Source: Candidatus Binataceae bacterium
GTDB lineage: Bacteria > Desulfobacterota > Binatia > Binatales > Binataceae
Direction of reading: 5' to 3'
DNA length: 25,695 nt
Assembly (NCBI GenBank): GCA_035624805.1
Contig: DASPQU010000251.1
Span: 1-25,695, forward strand
Below, piece after piece: positions 16,998-25,695 of the stretch. Below the pieces are notes generated by a model. It searched no databases. It was given only the letters and a program-made list of their open reading frames with translations, and was not told where the DNA came from. Numbering within the stretch: position 1 is the stretch's first letter; every line of letters starts with the position of its first letter. The position numbers and the translations under genes were made by a program.

Positions 16998-17606
16998 TTA
17001 CCAGCGCCCCGCCCTGATCAAAGCTCGCAGACCGGCCGGACCCGGCATCCGGCGCGGGAAGCCGAGCGGACCGAGGTATCGGATTGGAGCCGACGCGATC
17101 GGATACCCGTACGCCGGACCCGGCAGCACGATCGGCGCCGAGAGAGGACGCGCCGGCACAAGAACAGGTACTGCAATGTAAACACGGGCCGCAGCCAGAG
17201 CTTCCTGCTGCTGATAATCGTCGGCATTTCCGTAATCGCCGGGATCATCCGGCGAATCAGCAGGGGGAATCGAAGCGGTCTGGACAGGAGGATTCACATT
17301 TATGGTCCCAACCGGATCGTTCGTGCCGGTTCCTTCGCCGGCTGTGGGAATCGTCGAGTAGGCGTTGTCGGCCGTTCCGCCGATTCGAGTCTCGTCGCAA
17401 TGCGCGCCGCCGGAATCGACGGCGCACTGCTGCGGAATCTCGAGCACAGGTTCGCTGTCATCCAAGCCCACGGTCGGATCGATTTCAGGAGTTATGATGT
17501 CGGACCCACAGCAGGCGGGAGACAAATAGAGAATTCCCACGGCGAGATGCAGGCAGAACCCGAAACGCCGCAATCTGTTCATCAGCGAGCCAATGCTGAT
17601 GCGCAT
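16998..17606 (-). CDS. Hypothetical secreted Pro-rich protein
   Basis: Basic-then-hydrophobic N-terminus, acidic/Pro-rich middle, Pro-rich tail. Fills the gap between coaX and the SDR. Start uncertain (17606 or 17582). Confidence 0.6.
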   Translation of the reverse strand: MRISIGSLMNRLRRFGFCLHLAVGILYLSPACCGSDIITPEIDPTVGLDDSEPVLEIPQQCAVDSGGAHCDETRIGGTADNAYSTIPTAGEGTGTNDPVGTINVNPPVQTASIPPADSPDDPGDYGNADDYQQQEALAAARVYIAVPVLVPARPLSAPIVLPGPAYGYPIASAPIRYLGPLGFPRRMPGPAGLRALIRAGRW

Positions 17607-18575: not shown

Positions 18576-18652
18576 CGGGGCGTGGCGCAGACTGGTAGCG
18601 CACACGCTTGGGGTGCGTGTGGTCGCCGGTTCAAATCCGGCCGCCCCGACCA
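18576..18652 (+). tRNA. tRNA-Pro (anticodon GGG)
   Basis: 77 nt. Acceptor stem CGGGGCG/CGCCCCG, D arm GCGC/GCGC, anticodon arm CACGC-TTGGGGT-GCGTG, T arm GCCGG-TTCAAAT-CCGGC, encoded CCA. Confidence 0.98.
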
Positions 18653-18823
18653 ACCAATCCCCGGCAGACTCAAGTGCTCGGGTTCGCGAGATTCAGGGCC
18701 TTTGGCGTTGCTGTTCGGAAATTGCGGGGCCCTTTTCCAGGACCCCGCGTGCAGATTCCGAGTTGGGAAGATCGCCGACCTAACGTAGACTTTCCAAGCC
18801 TACATTGGTCGGCACGTTCACCC

Positions 18824-19050
18824 TCATGGGAAACTCACCGTGAATGGCGGCGTCAGGGAAAGCGAGCTCAGATCAAAAGTCTGCGCCGCTCCAACAATCG
18901 CCGGAAAGGGCGTAACGACACTGCTGTTGTGGCACACGCCTGGCAAGCTCAGATTAGCGCCGCCGCAAGGAAATGTCTCGACGGACTTGATGGTCAGAAT
19001 CTGAATCGGCGTCGCCGCGTAGTACAACGTTCCGTTGTTGGTTCCCTGGG
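18824..19050 (-). pseudogene. 3' remnant of a secreted beta-rich protein lacking its 5' end
   Basis: PQGTNNGTLYYAATPIQILTIKSVETFPCGGANLSLPGVCHNSSVVTPFPAIVGAAQTFDLSSLSLTPPFTVSFP* reads like real extracellular protein. No signal peptide; the frame is closed by TAG at 19093-19091. Confidence 0.4.
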
Positions 19051-19223
19051 GAATGTCATTCGATGGAGCCGGCAATCTCTGGGTCTTCAACTACACGAGC
19101 GGGACGATTTCGGAGTTCGTGCCCGGCCAGTTACAGAGTAGCGGCTCTCCGGCGCCGTCGGTCTTTTTAACCGGGCTGCCGCTCTACGCAGGCGAACTTA
19201 CTTTCGGTCCGGCCTCGATGTAA
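19035..19223 (+). pseudogene. C-terminal remnant of an NHL-repeat / beta-propeller protein
   Basis: PWGMSFDGAGNLWVFNYTSGTISEF is an NHL-like blade. Only one blade is present, with an in-frame TAG at 19020-19022 just upstream. Confidence 0.6.
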
Positions 19224-19947
19224 TTACCGGCAACGGCCTGGTCGCCGGATGGCGCCGCTGCTCGCCAAACATGCGCCATCCGGCGATCGCCATCGCGAAA
19301 AGAAAAGCGAACGCGGCTACCAGCGACCATCGGCTGCCCGACCAATGCGCTCTCAGCGCCTTGAGGTCCAGTTCGGGTCCGCCCTGCGCGATCGGAGCCT
19401 CGACGCGATACACGCTCACGTTGCGAAAAAAAGCCCGACCATTGTTATAGGCCCACAATCCGCCGAGGCGCAGCGTGATGTCGACGTCGGCTCCGGGCGC
19501 CGGCACTTTCAGAGAAAATCCGACCCGGCCCCATTGTGTTGTCCCTTTGACCTGTTCGGAAGTTCCTCCCAATTCGGCAATACCGACTGTTGCGCCATAG
19601 AAGATCGGGCCCCATCCGACGTTCTCGGTCCGCACGTCAGCCGCGATGTAATACCAACCCGGATCCAGATGGACCGTTTGCACCCATCGCGCATCGTTGC
19701 CGTAGGCGCTGGTAATCTCGATCTCAACCTCGCCGGGATTGGACGCGTAGGGCGCAATCCATCGAAGCGACGTCTGATGATCGCTGCTCCACACGATACG
19801 CCGCCAGGCGCGGGGCGTATCGGAACTTCCGCGCGAGAAATCGCCATTGACGATCAGATTCTGCTCGGCGCGCGAGACAACCGGCGTGAAGAAAATCTGC
19901 AGCGTCACGATCAGAAAGTAGAATGGCAGATGGCGCATCGCCGTCAC
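19198..19947 (-). CDS. Exported, C-terminally anchored protein with a CBM4/9-like (galactose-binding-like) domain
   Basis: Signal peptide; NLIVNGDFS, DARWVQTVHLDPGWYY, LRLGG, GRAFFRNVSV; C-terminal TM plus basic tail. GTG start overlaps the PMT stop. Confidence 0.75.
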   Translation of the reverse strand: MTAMRHLPFYFLIVTLQIFFTPVVSRAEQNLIVNGDFSRGSSDTPRAWRRIVWSSDHQTSLRWIAPYASNPGEVEIEITSAYGNDARWVQTVHLDPGWYYIAADVRTENVGWGPIFYGATVGIAELGGTSEQVKGTTQWGRVGFSLKVPAPGADVDITLRLGGLWAYNNGRAFFRNVSVYRVEAPIAQGGPELDLKALRAHWSGSRWSLVAAFAFLFAMAIAGWRMFGEQRRHPATRPLPVITSRPDRK

Positions 19948-21467
19948 TGCTGATAGCGCTCGTAGGTCGTCCAGTTCGCGACGCCGGGCCCCTTAAGCCA
20001 CATCCGTGCATCGTATGCCTCCCGCGAAACGGGGACAGCCATCCATAGCGGGAGAAAATAGAGGAACGCGGCGGCCATCGCCGCGATTGATGCGGCGCTC
20101 GCGACTCGTCCTCCGTTTCGCATCGCGATTGCCGCAACCAACGTGGATGCAAGCACGGCGCTCGCCGAAAGCATTAGAGGCGTGGAGTCGACGGCGATGA
20201 AAATCGCCGGCGCGAGCGCAGCGAGAATAACGACGCGTTCCCATCGCGCGGCGTCACCGTTCCAACATCGTGCGAGTTCGCATCCAAGCGCGAGATAGGA
20301 AAGATAAAGCGCCGGCATGTAGTGATAGGGATACGTGGTGCGCGAGATTGGAAGGAAGATCGCGAGAAACGCTACGTATCCGATCACGACGAATGCGCTC
20401 GCCAGCGTAGGACGCTTCAGAATCCTGATTGCGTTAACGACTATCGCGGCAAGTCCGCTCCAACATGCGATCGGATTGGGCGCAAGCCATTCGGTTGCGA
20501 TCAGCCCATCGGGAAAACTTTCCTGCCAGTAGACGATCGGATGCAGCACTATCGGCCATGTCCACCACGGCGCCGCGCGCACGTCGCGCGCGAACGATCG
20601 TTCGCCCGACGTGATTCCGGTCTGAAGCCAGCCAGCGTCGCGAAAGTACTGCCAAATCGAACTCATCCCGCCCCATCTCAGGAATACGAAGTTCGGTACA
20701 AAAACCATCAGCCACGCAACCGCCGCGGTCGAGCCGACCAGCACAAAGGCGCCGACGATCACACGCGCTGACGGGCCGGCGGCGATCGGAGCGCAGCCGG
20801 ACCCTCGAGTCATCAGTTCGTACAGTAGAAAGCCGCCGATCAGGAGCGGCACGGCGACCGGCACGTACAGTTTGCCGGCGAGGCAAAGCCCGATACTGAA
20901 TCCCAGCATCGCGAGGCTGCGGCGACGTCGCCCGAGGGTTCCGGATTGCACGAATCGAAAAAAGAACAGGTACGAGAGCGCGGCGAACGTAACGTAGGTC
21001 ATCTCCTGCATCGCGGTTCGCGAATCAACGATGAACTCGCCGTCGCACAGGACCAGCGCCGCAGCGATCCACGCGGCGAGCCGCGAGCCGAACATCCTCA
21101 GCGCGAGCAGATACGTAATCGCGACCAGTGCGGTGCCGAGGATCGCATTCGACGCCCGCAAGGCGGCGGGGCTGTCGCCGAAAATCCGCATTCCCAGTGC
21201 GATCAACTCCACGGCAAGCGGAGGATGAGAATCGATAAATTGCTCGCCGCGCAGGTACGCGCCGGCTTCGCCGCCAAAGTTCAGTTCGTCGAACACGACG
21301 GCGTCGGGATGGCCGAGATTCCAGAAACGAATCGCAGCTGCGACGACGACCAGCAGGGCGATGGCGACAAGATCGGTTCGGCGCCATCGCGAACCCTTCG
21401 GAACCGGGTCGGCAAAGTTCGCCGCCGCGCCGCCGCTACGCGACGATTCGTAAGGTTCAGGTTCCAT
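19944..21467 (-). CDS. PMT/GT39-family lipid-carrier-dependent glycosyltransferase (protein O-mannosyltransferase-like)
   Basis: VVFDE catalytic loop, HPPL, DSRTAMQE; C-terminal WWTWP, NPIACW, YPYHYMPA, FLYFLP; many TM helices. Confidence 0.9.
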   Translation of the reverse strand: MEPEPYESSRSGGAAANFADPVPKGSRWRRTDLVAIALLVVVAAAIRFWNLGHPDAVVFDELNFGGEAGAYLRGEQFIDSHPPLAVELIALGMRIFGDSPAALRASNAILGTALVAITYLLALRMFGSRLAAWIAAALVLCDGEFIVDSRTAMQEMTYVTFAALSYLFFFRFVQSGTLGRRRRSLAMLGFSIGLCLAGKLYVPVAVPLLIGGFLLYELMTRGSGCAPIAAGPSARVIVGAFVLVGSTAAVAWLMVFVPNFVFLRWGGMSSIWQYFRDAGWLQTGITSGERSFARDVRAAPWWTWPIVLHPIVYWQESFPDGLIATEWLAPNPIACWSGLAAIVVNAIRILKRPTLASAFVVIGYVAFLAIFLPISRTTYPYHYMPALYLSYLALGCELARCWNGDAARWERVVILAALAPAIFIAVDSTPLMLSASAVLASTLVAAIAMRNGGRVASAASIAAMAAAFLYFLPLWMAVPVSREAYDARMWLKGPGVANWTTYERYQQ

Positions 21468-21663
21468 CGCGCGGTACAGAATACCTAAAGGCGCGCGAAG
21501 TCACACGATTTCACGATTTGATGCGAATGCTTGAAATGCAGGAAAGCGCCGCACCATAGTGACACATAATAATACAAAAAGTATTGCATTATAGTTGTCT
21601 TCTGATTTAACGTCGTAGGCGTCGCCATGCGACCAAATACTTCCAGCCAGGGGAGGGGAACCA

Positions 21664-22551
21664 ATGGCCATCGCTCGCAAATCAGGATTCCGGATACGTA
21701 ACGCAGGCGCAGTTCTGATATTGGCAGGGTTGCTAATCCTGCCCCCATCGATTGCTCGCGCTCACGGCAACGATTGCCGCGGCGGAGACGACGATGACAA
21801 AGACATCGCGGCTCTGGCAGCGCAGGTGGCGGCTTTACAGTCGCAGGTAAACGCGTTGAGCGGTCTTTCCGCCCAAATTGCTTCACTGCAGAGCCAGATC
21901 AATGCGCTGTCGACGCTTGCGACCCAGGTTGCAGGTCTCCAAACAACTGTCAACACGCTACAGACGAGCGTCAACGGATTTCAGCAGCAGATCTCCGGTC
22001 TGACGAACCTCGCGAGCCTGGGAACATATATCAGCATAAACCCGGGTACGGTTAACGGCGTTTTGGGTCCAAACCTGGTGTTCAGCGGCGTGAACGTGCA
22101 AATCGTCAACGGTTCGACTTCAACGACAACTCCAAATGGATTGGGCAATCTTATCATCGGCTACAACGACGATTCCGGGCCCTACCAGAGTACCACAGAC
22201 GCCAACCGGTCTGGATCGCATAACCTCATCGTCGGCGACGAGCATCGATACACCTCGGCGGGCGGAATCGTGGCCGGTTACGGCAATCAGATCAGTTCGC
22301 TTTACGCCAGCGTGACCGGAGGAACCCAGAACGCAGCCCTCGCCTACGCGTCCACTGTGAGCGGCGGAGACAGCAATAGCGCCAAGGGATCGCAGTCCTC
22401 GATCAGCGGAGGCCATTTCAATGTGGCCGCGGGTACGCAGGCAAGCGTAAGCGGCGGTGAATCGAACGGTGCCGACGGGGAATACGCTGCAGTGGGCGGG
22501 GGAACCGGAAACGACGCCACCACGCAATGGGAATTTCTGCCAGCTCCGTAA
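21664..22551 (+). CDS. Secreted coiled-coil + Gly-rich 15-residue-repeat protein (adhesin/fibre-like)
   Basis: Signal peptide (..ARA-H), coiled-coil repeats, GPNLVFSGVNVQI..GLGNLIIGYN core, five xxVxGGxxNxAxGxx repeats. Strong RBS. Confidence 0.85.
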   Translation: MAIARKSGFRIRNAGAVLILAGLLILPPSIARAHGNDCRGGDDDDKDIAALAAQVAALQSQVNALSGLSAQIASLQSQINALSTLATQVAGLQTTVNTLQTSVNGFQQQISGLTNLASLGTYISINPGTVNGVLGPNLVFSGVNVQIVNGSTSTTTPNGLGNLIIGYNDDSGPYQSTTDANRSGSHNLIVGDEHRYTSAGGIVAGYGNQISSLYASVTGGTQNAALAYASTVSGGDSNSAKGSQSSISGGHFNVAAGTQASVSGGESNGADGEYAAVGGGTGNDATTQWEFLPAP

Positions 22552-22574
22552 GGATTGATTAAGCGCTTGAACAG

Positions 22575-22610
22575 CGGGCTGTCCGGATTGTGGGCAGCCC
22601 GTATTCTTTC
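22575..22610 (+). terminator. Probable intrinsic terminator
   Basis: CGGGCTGTCC-GGATTGT-GGGCAGCCCG (10-bp stem, one G-U pair) followed by TATTCTTTC. Confidence 0.65.
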
Positions 22611-22868
22611 CGTTTGAAGCAAACTCAAGCCAATAAAAGCACAGCTTGGCATATCGAACAGGAAGTCGTTTTTCGTGCAATCCACGATAGCGAATGTCCG
22701 GAAGTCGCCGGGCGCAAATATTAAATGGAAGCGGGCTCGACGGAAATTGGGAAATCTTCCCAACGCCATGTTAACGTAATTTCCAACAAAAAGTAATACA
22801 AGTACAGCGGCGCTCAAAAGAGTCGATCCAATCTCAACAGAGCCCGCAAAAACACAAGGGGGAAAATC

Positions 22869-23620
22869 ATGAAACCGGATACTTGTCGATCCAGAACAGG
22901 CGCCGGAGTATTTCCGTCGTCCATCGCACTCGTCGCGCTGTTCCTGGCCATGGCGATTCCTGCGCGTGCACTGGCCGATGACAGCTGGAAACCAGTTGTA
23001 GCGGCAATGCAGGCGCAGATTGTCGCCCTGCAAAAACAGGTTCAGACGCTGCAGGCGGCGCTCTCGAGCAAGGCGGCGCAGAATGCCTTGACGCTGGGGC
23101 AGTACGTGAGTGTGACCCAGCACCGCAATACGGAGTCCGTGGACCAAACATCATTTTCAGCGGCGTCAACGTCCACATTCGCAGTGGCTCAGGACAGACC
23201 GTCGATACCAGCGGCCTCGGCAATCTGGTGGTGGGCTACGATGACGATTTCGGCGTAACGGGCCTCGATGCGTATCGGTCGGGTTCCAACAACCTGATTG
23301 TCGGAGATTACCACCAGTTTACCTCGGCCGTCGGAAACATTTCGACCGCGGTGGATACAACAATTCCGAGGGCTTTGCTTCGAGCGTCAGCGGAGGAATC
23401 AACAATTTCGGCACAGGCGACTATTCGAGCGTATCCGCCGGCGGCGTCAGCAACTATGCGACCGCCACAGGCGAGCGTGTCAGGCGGATTCAAGAATACT
23501 GCCAGCGGGTATTATGCGAGCGTGCTCGGAGGCTCATCCAACGTAGCGAGTGGAGTCGGATCGTCGGTAAGTGGTGGATCCGGCAACGTCAACAACAACC
23601 CAAATCAGGTGATGCCGTAG
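22869..23620 (+). pseudogene. Frameshifted paralog of the 21664-22551 adhesin-like protein
   Basis: Similarity to the upstream paralog switches frame near 23114, near 23350 and near 23470. The stitched product has the signal peptide, coiled coil, GPNIIFSGVNVHI..GLGNLVVGYD core and the Gly repeats. Confidence 0.85.
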
Positions 23621-23636
23621 CGCTTTTCGGTAGTAG

Positions 23637-23676
23637 GGCCGGAAAGCGAGTTGCCGCTTTCCGGCCTTTTGTTCTT
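23637..23676 (+). terminator. Intrinsic terminator
   Basis: Perfect 12-bp stem GGCCGGAAAGCG-AGTTGC-CGCTTTCCGGCC followed by TTTTGTTCTT. Confidence 0.85.
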
Positions 23677-23758
23677 GGCAACCACCGGAGAACGCTCGTT
23701 TTTCCGAGCACTTCTTGCAGAGTCGTGTCGACCTCGTTACTATCGCTCGCAACTAACT

Positions 23759-24235
23759 ATGATGCGAATTGACGCACTCATGAGAATAATTCTTGGCTTT
23801 ATCGCTCTGGGTTCGCTTTTGTTGACCGCGAATCTTTCCAACGCCGGGACCTGCCCGAATCCGCTTCCTGGCTGCACCTCCTCGGGTACCTTGGCGGATT
23901 TCACCGGAAATTTCGGCTGTACAGCGGTCACTACCAACGTGCCGAACGGCGGTTTCGCGCCCGTAAAAGCGAGCGTCCTTTTGATCTCGCCAGACGGAAA
24001 AGGGAATTTCGCCGGCAAGGAGGCGCAAAACTCCAACGACCCCTCCGTTTCCAACACTTACCAGGACTTTACCACGGTAGGCGGAATGTACTGTGTGAAT
24101 ACCGATGACACCGGCTATCTGTTTCCAACCGGGGGCTGCCCGATTGCCTTCGTCATCGATAGCGGCAAACAGGAGCTACGAGGCATCGATTCGTCTGAGC
24201 AAAGGGCGGGAGCAATGACGTGTCGGGAGCAGTAA
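23759..24235 (+). CDS. Secreted six-cysteine beta-rich protein, paralog 1 (unknown family)
   Basis: Signal peptide, then CPNPLPGC..GTLADFTGNFGCT..YCVNTDDTGYLFP..GCPIAFVIDSGKQE..TCR. Start is 23759, 23762 or 23780; the track start at 23651 lies inside the terminator. Confidence 0.85.
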   Translation: MMRIDALMRIILGFIALGSLLLTANLSNAGTCPNPLPGCTSSGTLADFTGNFGCTAVTTNVPNGGFAPVKASVLLISPDGKGNFAGKEAQNSNDPSVSNTYQDFTTVGGMYCVNTDDTGYLFPTGGCPIAFVIDSGKQELRGIDSSEQRAGAMTCREQ

Positions 24236-24303
24236 CTGACCTGCTCGCTTGCCGGCGTTACGGCCGGGCGCTCGCTAGTGAGGTGCGCGCTGCGAAGCCA
24301 CGA

Positions 24304-24762
24304 ATGAGGAAAGTCTTCTTAGTCTCAACGCTACTCTGCCTTCTCTTTGTCCGCGGCCCGGGTTGGGCTCAGACCGTGTGTCCAAGCCAGACCCTGAATT
24401 GTAGTTCGAAAGGCTCGCTCGCGGATTTTAGCGGCTCCTTTGCTTGCACCGTCGTACAAGCGGGCGTGTATGTCCAGAAGGTTAACCTGGCGCTGTTAAC
24501 ATCCGACGGTAACGGCAACATTTCGGGTAAATCCGCATCGGATAAGAACGACCCGGATACGATCGGCACCTTCAAGGATTTCAGCAACCAGGCTGTAAGC
24601 GCGACGTATTGCGTGAACTCCGACGATACAGGCTATCTTTTTCCCACATCGGGTCTGGCGGGGTGTCCGTTGGCGTTCGTAATCGATCGCGGCAAGCAGG
24701 AGGTGAGACTTTTGTCTTCTGCATCTCCGGCCGCGATCTTATTAACGTGCAGAAAGAGATAA
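24304..24762 (+). CDS. Secreted six-cysteine beta-rich protein, paralog 2
   Basis: MRKVFLVSTLLCLL signal peptide; CPSQTLNC..GSLADFSGSFACT..YCVNSDDTGYLFP..GCPLAFVIDRGKQE..TCR. Confidence 0.85.
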   Translation: MRKVFLVSTLLCLLFVRGPGWAQTVCPSQTLNCSSKGSLADFSGSFACTVVQAGVYVQKVNLALLTSDGNGNISGKSASDKNDPDTIGTFKDFSNQAVSATYCVNSDDTGYLFPTSGLAGCPLAFVIDRGKQEVRLLSSASPAAILLTCRKR

Positions 24763-24766
24763 CCCG

Positions 24767-25327
24767 ATGACTCGGCGGGCAACTATGGGTCACTTGAAAA
24801 GCAGGCGTGCTCCCGGAGCGCGTGCACTGGCGATAGCCGCCTTGCTGGCGTTGTTTTTCGCCGCCTTCGCCGAGTCTCCCCGCGGCGCGAGCGGGGCTTC
24901 ACCGGCTGCGACTGCCACTTCCCATCCGGCGTTTTTCAACGGCGAAGCCGCGCTTCCGGGAGGAGTCTTCTATTACCTGGTCTTTCCGGACGGCAATTTG
25001 TTCGGCTACTACACCTATACGTTCTTTCCGTTCCTGTACCACAACGATCTGGGGTTCGAGTATTTCGTCGATGCGGGAGGTCCGGCGCACGGCGCGTTCC
25101 TGTACGATTTCATTCGGTCGAACTGGTTCTATACCGATCCGGGAAATTTCCCATATCTTTACAGCTTCTCCGCACCCGGTTGGTATTTCTACTTTCTCGA
25201 TGGGGCGAACCCAGGCCATTACACCAGTAATCCCAGGATTTTCGCGAACCTTAATACGCAGGCGATCATTTTCAGTCCGCCGTATCCCGCCACCCAACTT
25301 AACATCTATTTGCCGGTGCTCGAATGA
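24767..25327 (+). CDS. Secreted aromatic-rich repeat protein
   Basis: Signal peptide, short Ser/Thr/Ala linker, then a 134-aa domain with 37 F/Y/W residues by hand count; ends IYLPVLE. Confidence 0.85.
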   Translation: MTRRATMGHLKSRRAPGARALAIAALLALFFAAFAESPRGASGASPAATATSHPAFFNGEAALPGGVFYYLVFPDGNLFGYYTYTFFPFLYHNDLGFEYFVDAGGPAHGAFLYDFIRSNWFYTDPGNFPYLYSFSAPGWYFYFLDGANPGHYTSNPRIFANLNTQAIIFSPPYPATQLNIYLPVLE

Positions 25328-25695
25328 ACACATGGCGAGCCATCCCCAGTTTGGTTAATCGCATCGTGTCTCGGTTTTCCGGTGTCGCATGCCTGGTCAC
25401 GATAGTAGCGGTCACAGCGTCGGCGCGCGCCGCCGAAGTCTGCCCGAATCCACTTCCTACCTGCTCGGGCACGAGCGGTACATTAAGCGATTTGAAGGGG
25501 ACTTTCGGTTGTACCGCGCTAAGAAACAATTCGGTGGGTGTCTCTCTCCTTCAGGTACGCAAGTTGGTTTCGCCCGGAGACGGAACGATGACCATGGATT
25601 TCGCGCAGAACTATAATTACGCGGACTCCGCGACGTATCAGGATTTCGGCGTGCAGAACCTTAATCTGACCTACTGCATCAATTCGGACGATACC
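25324..25695 (+). CDS. Secreted cysteine-rich beta protein, paralog 3 (runs off the window)
   Basis: Open frame from ATG 25324 (ATGA overlap with the previous stop): MNTWRAIP...ASARA-AEVCPNPLPTCSGTSGTLSDLKGTFGCT...YQDF...YCINSDDT. Absent from the ORF track. Confidence 0.85.
   Translation, partial: MNTWRAIPSLVNRIVSRFSGVACLVTIVAVTASARAAEVCPNPLPTCSGTSGTLSDLKGTFGCTALRNNSVGVSLLQVRKLVSPGDGTMTMDFAQNYNYADSATYQDFGVQNLNLTYCINSDDT

Follow-up and report, generated by a model that had tools for sequence, protein, structure and literature searches.

Glycosyltransferases of the GT39 family, represented by the actinobacterial Pmt and the eukaryotic PMT1/2/4, are membrane enzymes of the GT-C type, which act on exported proteins; according to the accessible part of one source, the bacterial GT39 enzymes have received only minimal study so far (PMC11727336). 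A second group of described systems concerns the extreme C-terminus of exported proteins. C-terminal sorting signals are defined by a transmembrane (TM) segment plus an arginine cluster, a dedicated partner gene is adjacent in one-to-one systems, and the existence of homologues without the signal is a further listed attribute (Haft and colleagues, 10.1101/2023.06.07.544157, in the accessible part of that article). Here, we compare with these systems a group of genes located at positions 19198..25695 of contig DASPQU010000251.1 (C251) of a Candidatus Binataceae bacterium. The whole contig of 25,695 nucleotides (nt) was analysed and is named the window in the following. The gene region contains, on the minus strand, a PMT-family glycosyltransferase and a partner protein resembling a carbohydrate-binding module (CBM); on the plus strand, it contains two fibre genes (fibreA, fibreB), three genes of a family of small secreted proteins (cysA, cysB, cysC), and a gene for a protein with an aromatic-rich domain. 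A first-pass annotation had proposed that these parts form one system, namely a glycosylated surface appendage or coat.

We interpret the stretch not as one appendage system but as a mosaic of three units with independent inheritance, and assign a probability of roughly two in three to this reading. The units are the PMT with its partner, the fibre genes, and the cys genes with the aromatic gene. Their independence is deduced from separate distributions, missing co-location, hairpins following the fibre genes, and differing G+C content. Distributions were determined for a sample of 400 genomes of the class and for a closer sample of 40 relatives, 24 of which belong to the window's own taxonomic family (code f1). 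The partner was detected in all 24 same-family genomes (23 of 23, if the unpublished genome G017 is left out) and in 28 of the 40 relatives. The fibre family is present in six of the 40, two of these being same-family genomes, and cys in three; in none of the 40 do the two families share a genome. In the class sample, cys was found in 15 of the 94 f1 genomes, gave three weak hits among the 55 f8 genomes, and was found in none of the 251 others; the aromatic domain did not occur in any other genome of the class (0 of 400). With respect to location, neither the PMT nor any other of the families was seen near cys, fibre, or aromatic loci elsewhere within flanks of 1.5 to approximately 10 kb, and none of 46 outside loci of the aromatic domain has a cys, fibre, PMT, or partner gene nearby. 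Terminator-like hairpins follow fibreA (22574..22602, plus strand, 12-bp stem) and fibreB (23635..23668, plus strand, 14-bp stem), as determined by a hairpin search. G+C content is 0.61–0.62 for the PMT and its partner, 0.58 for the fibre genes, and 0.54–0.56 for the cys and aromatic genes, which is the lowest value of the stretch; the genome has 0.603.

Several elements of the first-pass description stand. The pair of PMT and CBM-like protein is indeed oriented divergently from the secreted-protein genes, with 196 nt in between; all plus-strand products possess, as judged by eye, signal-peptide-like N-termini, and the two paralogous families were confirmed by means of tblastn (fibreA/fibreB, E 4e-22; cysA/cysB, E 3e-34). 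The postulated tight coupling applies to the PMT and its partner and to the series cysB–aromatic–cysC; it does not apply to fibreA, fibreB, and cysA, which are separated by gaps of 317 nt (fibreA–fibreB) and 138 nt (fibreB–cysA) and by the hairpins. The central claim of a single system did not survive the tests of co-occurrence and synteny, as the families are independent and unlinked elsewhere. The orderly divergent arrangement of secreted-protein genes and a glycosyltransferase is not a co-inherited system.

The glycosyltransferase (19944..21467, minus strand) consists of 507 amino acids (aa) and was classified by means of Pfam as a GT39-like enzyme of the GT-C type. It reached 90.9 bits with PF02366 PMT (cut-off 22.7), 49.8 bits with PF13231 PMT_2 (26.1), and 48.7 bits with PF16192 PMT_4TMC (32.4); both the PMT catalytic domain and the C-terminal four-TM region exceed the curated cut-offs. 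The translation contains an Asp60-Glu61 pair in the first loop, within the segment VVFDELNF, which we take to be the catalytic pair of GT39 enzymes. With its PMT, PMT_2, and PMT_4TMC domains and the first-loop Asp-Glu, the enzyme resembles the actinobacterial Pmt and the eukaryotic PMT1/2/4 and, judged by its sequence, it would likewise be a GT-C membrane enzyme acting on exported proteins. In contrast to these enzymes, it lacks the MIR domain, which was not among its Pfam matches at E up to 0.1. It also stays below the score for equivalence to the characterised bacterial Pmt: the NCBIfam model NF058602 matched residues 10–163 with 55.9 bits, the cut-off being 800. A further difference is that this type of PMT is always accompanied by a separate, translationally coupled CBM-like membrane protein, sometimes in fused form, and that four such pairs exist in a single genome.

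The gene of the partner (19198..19947, minus strand; 249 aa) overlaps the PMT gene by 4 nt. The protein comprises a signal peptide, a CBM-like β-sandwich, a C-terminal TM helix, and a short basic tail. In the AlphaFold2 (AF2) model, which has a predicted local distance difference test (pLDDT) value of 88.0, a cleavable-looking N-terminal helix is followed by strands at 49–194, a TM helix at 206–227, and the basic tail. A Foldseek comparison with the PDB yielded 148 matches with E-values of at most 0.001. The top match was CBM70 (4d0q) with an E-value of 6.8e-10 and a TM-score of 0.65 on the target; further matches were CBM61, CBM4-2, and CBM16. According to this model, the partner has the β-jelly-roll fold of the CBM4/9/16/61/70 type and may bind a sugar. 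The CBM label of the first-pass annotation is thus justified at the level of the fold; at the level of sequence families it is not. Neither Pfam nor NCBIfam contains a matching family at E up to 0.1, a profile of the partner found no PDB sequence at E up to 1, and none of 42 partner homologues has a precomputed Pfam domain.

The PMT and its partner constitute a real, conserved two-gene cassette. By means of tblastn, they were found adjacent to each other in all four copies of this genome (contigs C251, C102, C133, and C187); the neighbours of the other three cassettes are unrelated to those in the window. In all 19 relative loci examined, the PMT is located directly upstream of the partner on the same strand. 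Moreover, in two other families of the class, the CBM-like domain and the PMT are fused within a single open reading frame (ORF), the former being N-terminal and the latter C-terminal (L093, 1171 aa; L092, at least 1029 aa). A third architecture combines an N-terminal CBM-like domain with a C-terminal PA14 domain (L091:480-3374 in genome G007, 964 aa; L094:4771-7626 in G005, 951 aa); a PMT_2 match lies in the middle part of the G007 protein, whereas the G005 protein lacks one at this domain's E-values up to 0.001. This architecture is a further connection of the CBM-like domain with GT-C enzymes. The core cassette of the family is the long form found on C133, which consists of a PMT of about 930–1054 aa, including an N-terminal extension of about 490 aa, and the partner. 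Genes for a hydrolase and a MazG-like protein adjoin it in several relative loci, and likewise on C133. The flanking genes of the window were not found around the PMT cassettes of relatives (0 of 14 loci); therefore, the short-form cassette of the window is an extra paralogue, and it is one of three extra PMT and partner paralogues of this genome.

Two side observations concern these cassettes. A conserved membrane protein of about 657–725 aa adjoins the core cassette at L095, L098, L100, L103, L104, L105, and L107 (genomes G003, G019, G022, G020, G002, G004, and G016); its N-terminal segment reads …YAYFYQG.DQSTAARFDLMRS…. Divergent from the CBM–PMT fusion gene of genome G028 lies a gene (L092:3404-4666) for a 420-aa lipoprotein containing a long Thr/Pro linker, an arrangement also seen in the window.

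We propose that the PMT functions as a periplasm-facing GT-C O-glycosyltransferase, which is translationally coupled to its type-I membrane partner. Adjacency, translational coupling, and fusions suggest that the partner docks to the PMT by means of its membrane helix and displays a lectin-like domain in the periplasm. The CBM-like sandwich would most likely be a lectin-like or acceptor-recognition subunit, taking the place of the eukaryotic MIR domains. If this is true, a bacterial GT39-type enzyme would leave to a separate lectin-like subunit what built-in MIR domains do elsewhere, and the four PMT–partner pairs in the small genome of an uncultured soil lineage would offer a handle on O-glycosylation outside the Actinobacteria.

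The third unit is built around the cys family. Its members in the window are cysA (23759..24235), cysB (24304..24762), which is located directly upstream of the aromatic gene, and cysC (25324..25695), which is cut by the contig end; all three lie on the plus strand. They were assigned by means of tblastn, alignment, and a tree (cysA), an AF2 model and VIA-align (cysB), and tblastn, a profile, and a tree (cysC). The hairpin at 23635-23668 covers the TTG codon upstream of cysA, with which a longer frame would begin, and consequently the start was placed at ATG 23759. With this start and ATG 24304 for cysB, the apparent overlap of the two genes disappears. Identity values determined by tblastn are 42% (cysA/cysB), 41% (cysA/cysC), and 34% (cysB/cysC). 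In their mature form the proteins comprise about 130 residues, six conserved cysteines among them, and match no named family by sequence. The family is very small: among 1.84 billion representatives, a profile search recovered 54 with E-values up to 0.001 and 43 with E-values up to 1e-10. In the Protein Atlas the nearest neighbours are unnamed clusters of Nitrospirota and Acidobacteriota (0.93–0.94).

The AF2 model of cysB (pLDDT 76.1) shows eight strands in an up-and-down barrel. Foldseek found nothing at E up to 0.001; best was the surface lipoprotein barrel PmSLP (9b3h_B) with 2.5e-3, followed by lipocalins. VIA-align gave Z 10.2 and a root-mean-square deviation of 2.5–2.7 over 100–105 residues in comparison with small natural and designed barrels, a Z of such size being common for barrels. 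The predicted fold is a generic eight-stranded barrel, for which no family can be named. With eight up-and-down strands predicted for about 115 residues, cys would resemble the calycin/lipocalin barrels and the barrel of the Slam-dependent surface lipoproteins. It differs from them in having six conserved cysteines and an unrelated sequence, and in being encoded apart from the lipoprotein "stalk" instead of being fused to it. As a side observation, nine loci matched the cys profile weakly (E 1e-4 to 1e-6); they encode more distant small secreted proteins, whose neighbours lack the C-terminal tail described below. Those at L061, L062, L066, and L067 (genomes G198, G138, G057, and G343) have about 150–180 aa, some are arranged in tandem, and they may represent a wider small-barrel superfamily.

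Outside the own genome, 11 strong cys loci were found in 10 genomes; in one of them (G041) the cys gene is broken. Each of the 11 has, immediately downstream and in the same orientation, a gene (often a few bases away or overlapping) for a secreted protein with a conserved tail, which we name the client. Most clients have a lipoprotein-type signal, a long Thr/Pro/Ala-rich stretch, and a conserved C-terminal end, at which the motif [YF]xP[VLI]L[ENQ] is located. Examples are …DYMPVLE, …PYLPLLQF, …QYQPILE, …AFMPLLN, …AFAPLLQ, …LYGPVLN, …IYGPVLN, …PFLPVLGPSLY, …QYEPVLEWG, and …QYLPVL. A loose form of the pattern matches 10 of the 11 clients, the eleventh lacking the final residue. Elsewhere in the 11 loci, two unrelated frames also fit the pattern among 810 that are 60 aa or longer. 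The nine loci with weak hits contain no match among 244 frames, and the own genome has two among its 14,908 frames of 80 aa or more, one of which is the aromatic protein. The passengers of the tail vary: the linker alone, a 678-aa protein consisting mostly of Thr/Pro linker, choice-of-anchor D domains, and, in the window, the aromatic domain. Choice-of-anchor domains owe their name to alternative C-terminal anchors; in the clients, one or two of them (NF012200) were recognised with 55.4 and 99.8 bits (cut-off 45).

Four loci have a second ("down") cys gene after the client. These four genes form a clade of their own (support 96/94), and cysA, cysB, and the partial cysC all group with the "up" type. 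The idea that cysB–aromatic–cysC is an up–client–down triad was consequently rejected, as cysC belongs to the "up" genes and the "down" genes constitute a separate clade. The window contains a local expansion of "up" genes around a single client. The idea that the tail is a by-product of the start region of the downstream gene was also rejected, as it is kept in seven loci without a downstream cys gene.

These findings support the notion that cys and the aromatic protein are tied by the conserved C-terminal tail. As far as the accessible part of the article cited above (10.1101/2023.06.07.544157) allows a comparison with LPXTG/sortase, PEP-CTERM/exosortase, and MYXO-CTERM/myxosortase, the tail shares with these the features of a short motif at the extreme C-terminus following a low-complexity linker, the occurrence on unrelated passengers, the existence of tail-less homologues, and an adjacent partner gene. 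Unlike them, it has no hydrophobic helix or Arg cluster, and in place of a membrane protease its partner would be a small soluble barrel. The tails stop 0–6 residues past the motif and contain neither a TM segment nor a basic or Arg cluster.

The shared features, which in the accessible text are those of sorting signals (10.1101/2023.06.07.544157), are also what one would expect if the tail were a processing, sorting, or degradation signal for unlinked machinery, and the resemblance of the cys fold to ligand-binding barrels would allow for a different role of cys, e.g. as a small-molecule-binding calycin or as an export chaperone of the client. We consider this explanation unlikely, although it is the strongest competitor of our own: the tail lacks the TM segment and the basic cluster which define such signals, no candidate processing enzyme recurs in the small cys flanks examined, and the strict adjacency in 11 of 11 loci points to the barrel as the partner. 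A complex prediction for cysB (residues 23–152) and the aromatic protein, which was run without controls, gave a score of 0.00 and counts neither for nor against an interaction. We thus prefer to regard the barrel as the partner of the tail; our best guess is that it binds the terminal peptide of the client. If true, this compact one-to-one pair of C-terminal tail and partner would break the rule that such signals consist of motif, helix, and basic cluster. In a limited literature collection on bacterial GT39 enzymes and CBM partners, choice-of-anchor domains and sorting signals, and glycosyltransferases or lipoproteins of Binatota/Binataceae, we found a description of neither the PMT–partner module nor the cys–client module.

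The client in the window is the aromatic protein (24767..25327, plus strand), whose gene is separated from cysB by 4 nt and shares 4 nt with cysC. A domain alignment divides it into a signal peptide, a short Ala/Ser/Thr linker, a domain of about 120 aa rich in Tyr, Phe, and Trp, and a 16-residue C-terminal extension (25277-25324, plus strand) bearing the cys-linked tail and ending with …LNIYLPVLE. The genome contains four further copies of the domain (on C86, C512, C264, and C159), which are 56–68% identical to the window copy. Those on C86, C264, and C512 constitute the extreme C-terminus of larger frames. The copy on C159 (C159:4678-5057) is split over two frames and is probably another decaying paralogue. 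Outside the class, the domain was found at seven loci of four metagenome-assembled genomes (MAGs) named Verrucomicrobiota or Chthoniobacterales and on 39 metagenome contigs. In the Protein Atlas, the aromatic protein is nearest to unnamed Verrucomicrobiota clusters (0.78). Nearly all complete carriers, which have about 200–1,270 aa, end within a few residues of the domain. Their passengers are as diverse as Kelch and DUF5122 propellers, a subtilase with a pro-kumamolisin activation domain, BNR repeats, and PMP repeats. The tail is present neither on the three intact other copies of the own genome nor at any of the 46 outside loci. Among the soil contigs and Verrucomicrobiota MAGs (L078–L084 and L109–L147), two to four carriers per contig are frequently seen.

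The behaviour of the aromatic domain is that of a C-terminal module for anchoring or sorting, and it may represent an undescribed domain of this kind; it matches no Pfam or NCBIfam model, including the models of C-terminal domains (CTDs). The role as an anchor or sorting part, which the first-pass annotation had suggested for it, fits the extreme C-terminal position on many passengers elsewhere. In this position on diverse passengers and in the occurrence of several copies per genome, it resembles the CTD of type IX secretion. It differs from this CTD by the missing match to Pfam or NCBIfam models, by its named relatives, all of which are Verrucomicrobiota MAGs, and by the state of the window copy, which is free of a passenger and carries the extra tail. 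The domain was probably acquired horizontally, and the passenger-free copy in the window has gained the 16-residue extension with the cys-linked tail. If the modules work as proposed, the window depicts the gain of a client: a foreign C-terminal domain acquiring a 16-residue tail.

On the other side of the aromatic gene, cysC probably continues on contig C9. This contig shares its first 10 bases with the window end in the same frame; its first 43 codons match positions 110–153 of the cys profile, and cysC in the window covers positions 2–112. The C-terminus of the cys-family protein is followed on C9 by pcm, a gene for an M23/LysM peptidase, apt, and a cation-efflux gene. If the join is correct, the locus closes with cysC, and there are no more members and no export channel downstream. 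The reading of the downstream flank that the first-pass annotation suggested thus gave neither on this probable continuation.

The remaining unit consists of the fibre genes. FibreA (21664..22551, plus strand) encodes a signal peptide, a heptad coiled coil of about 75 aa, and C-terminal Gly/Ser/Asn repeats of 14–15 residues. The repeats match the head of Moraxella UspA1 (PDB 3pr7) with E 1.9e-11 in three stretches of residues 224–290; with Pfam, UspA1_rep gave 15.5 bits (cut-off 27), and LbR_Ice_bind also stayed below its cut-off. FibreA shares the UspA1-head-type repeats and the coiled-coil stalk with the trimeric autotransporter adhesins UspA1 and YadA. Unlike them, it has the reversed order of signal peptide, coiled coil, and C-terminal head, it lacks the YadA anchor, and it belongs to a huge unnamed family. 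The interpretation as a trimeric autotransporter was ruled out by this absence: Pfam found no YadA-type β-barrel anchor, and the protein stops no more than about 10 residues past the last repeat. The family comprises more than 3,092 proteins at E up to 1e-5 (8,000 candidates scored), most of which are unnamed; a few are annotated as "trimeric autotransporter adhesin" by JGI. A comparison with PHROGs gave nothing but weak coiled-coil matches. The ending of fibreA, …EFLPAP, was rejected as a variant of the tail, as fibre homologues in cys-free genomes end with a sequence of the type W-x-[AG]-G-x-L. We regard fibreA as a secreted coiled-coil protein, probably a trimer, which bears a β-roll like that of the UspA1 head and whose gene has its own terminator.

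FibreB (22869..23620, plus strand), a frameshifted paralogue identified by tblastn and frame analysis, is 44.5% identical to fibreA over 155 aa. Duplication and decay, as noted in the first-pass annotation, are real: the frame of fibreB changes three times, at about 23113, 23345, and 23468. At the first site, a Logan contig of sequencing run X1 agrees with the window. A contig of a related strain (run X3, 95–99% alike) has one additional base behind 23122, which keeps the frame; therefore, the first shift is a true strain difference. At the second site, the X1 contig has 22 extra, frame-keeping bases behind 23347, and this shift may consequently reflect a collapsed assembly or a polymorphism. 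This same X1 contig also contains the third shift. We regard fibreB as a decaying duplicate of fibreA. Some fibre homologues (L020, L021, and L026; genomes G035 and G027) possess, after the signal peptide, a short Cys-flanked segment of the form …CGDV.GD..V.ASDAL.VL..AVG…, which looks like a dockerin or EF-hand by eye and is missing in fibreA. The presence of a dockerin was rejected, as no such Pfam match was found at E up to 0.01 for L020 and L026.

Taken together, the operon cysA–cysB–aromatic–cysC appears to be a local expansion of a module, traced mainly to the window's own family, in which a barrel gene is located directly upstream of its client. The barrels would form "heads" on lipid- or domain-anchored Thr/Pro stalks, which are probably O-glycosylated. 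For Caldicellulosiruptor, the accessible part of PMC6151902 describes a GT39 enzyme that glycosylates such Thr/Pro linkers. Building on the observed gene content, folds, adjacency, distribution, and tail motif, we infer binding, glycosylation, and localisation with confidence falling in this order: the PMT and its partner form an O-glycosylation complex, the tail is read by the adjacent barrel, the barrel is tethered to a lipid- or domain-anchored stalk, and the PMT paralogues of the lineage use the Thr/Pro stalks as substrates. In its most far-reaching form, this leads to a picture which is speculative and which we regard as doubtful: cys barrels and tail might be an undescribed tag–receptor pair without a TM segment, in which a small disulfide-bonded barrel takes hold of the free C-terminus of a lipid- or domain-anchored client, with barrel heads on mucin-like stalks that are O-glycosylated by PMT and lectin-like cassettes, and with a horizontally acquired Verrucomicrobiota-type domain plugged in by gaining the tail. 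If the tag–receptor reading were true, the lineage would possess a type of glycosylated surface coat so far unknown among bacteria.

Some findings weigh against the mosaic reading or its details. The closest relative of the window cassette, whose partner is 79% identical, was not among the loci compared for synteny, and the flanks amount to just 1.5 kb in seven of the 11 strong cys loci. The window combines three "up" genes with one client, whereas relatives have an up–client or an up–client–down arrangement. The join of the window and C9 is probable, but their overlap is 10 nt long and falls inside a conserved motif. Finally, PMT enzymes act on many secreted proteins, and the neighbouring PMT may still glycosylate the products of the window.

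This last point leads to a looser link, in which the PMT paralogue of the window was recruited for glycosylating the neighbouring accessory secreted proteins, no appendage being involved. The four PMT and partner paralogues of the genome suggest divided acceptor specificities, and the Thr/Pro-rich lipoprotein encoded divergently from a CBM–PMT fusion in another genome (L092:3404-4666) would be a comparable case. We nevertheless judge this link to be quite unlikely, as short-type PMT cassettes show no recurring association with the fibre, cys, or aromatic families, and the aromatic client of the window has merely a short linker. The one dedicated system proposed first, with a fibre shaft, cys tips or coat, an aromatic anchor, and its own PMT and CBM glycosyltransferase, is improbable: the shared intergenic region of the divergent arrangement, the signal peptides on all plus-strand products, the anchor-like behaviour of the aromatic domain, and the Ser/Thr-rich stretch in fibreA, together with the long Thr/Pro linkers of clients elsewhere, which are of the GT39-substrate kind (PMC6151902, accessible part), speak for it, but the families neither co-occur nor co-locate elsewhere, a strong terminator-like hairpin follows each fibre gene, base composition varies between the units, the other three PMT cassettes of the genome have unrelated neighbours, and an export channel is absent from the window and the probable downstream contig. 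In agreement with the first-pass annotation, no transporter or usher is visible at 19198-25695; nor does this region contain a dedicated export channel, usher, or assembly ATPase, which would place it among chaperone-usher or pilus loci. With the mosaic of three units as the preferred reading, what remains of interest is the family-wide cassette of PMT and lectin-like partner, and the undescribed pairing of barrel and tail-bearing client, for which a foreign anchoring domain was recruited.

The MAG from which the window originates consists of 514 contigs with 2.54 Mb in total; its completeness is 82.6% and its contamination 0.41%. The first 18.5 kb of the window contain ordinary chromosomal genes, including panB/panC/panD and genes for a type III pantothenate kinase, PPK2, a carboxylesterase, and a short-chain dehydrogenase. 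The tRNA mentioned in the first-pass annotation is a tRNA-Pro with anticodon GGG (18576..18652, plus strand; ARAGORN); it exists, yet lies outside 19198..25695 and is a context element. A tRNA-targeted island was ruled out, as neither an integrase nor a tRNA-derived direct repeat was found in the window, and no such repeat occurs in C9 either. The divergent intergenic region (21468..21663, 196 nt, as given by the ORF coordinates) contains a single promoter-like match on the plus strand (21531-21560), such matches being no commoner than in shuffled sequence. A 202-aa frame at 16998-17606 (minus strand) has a signal-peptide-like start, a Pro/Gly/Asp-rich body, and no Pfam match. A 177-aa Arg-rich frame at 18608-19141 (plus strand) begins within the tRNA-Pro gene and is most likely no gene. 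Of the sampled words of the stretch, 93% are present in run X1, which is labelled as a peat metagenome. In run X2, a contig of 293 bases matches the final 85 bases of the window (25611-25695) and extends 208 bases past the window's end.

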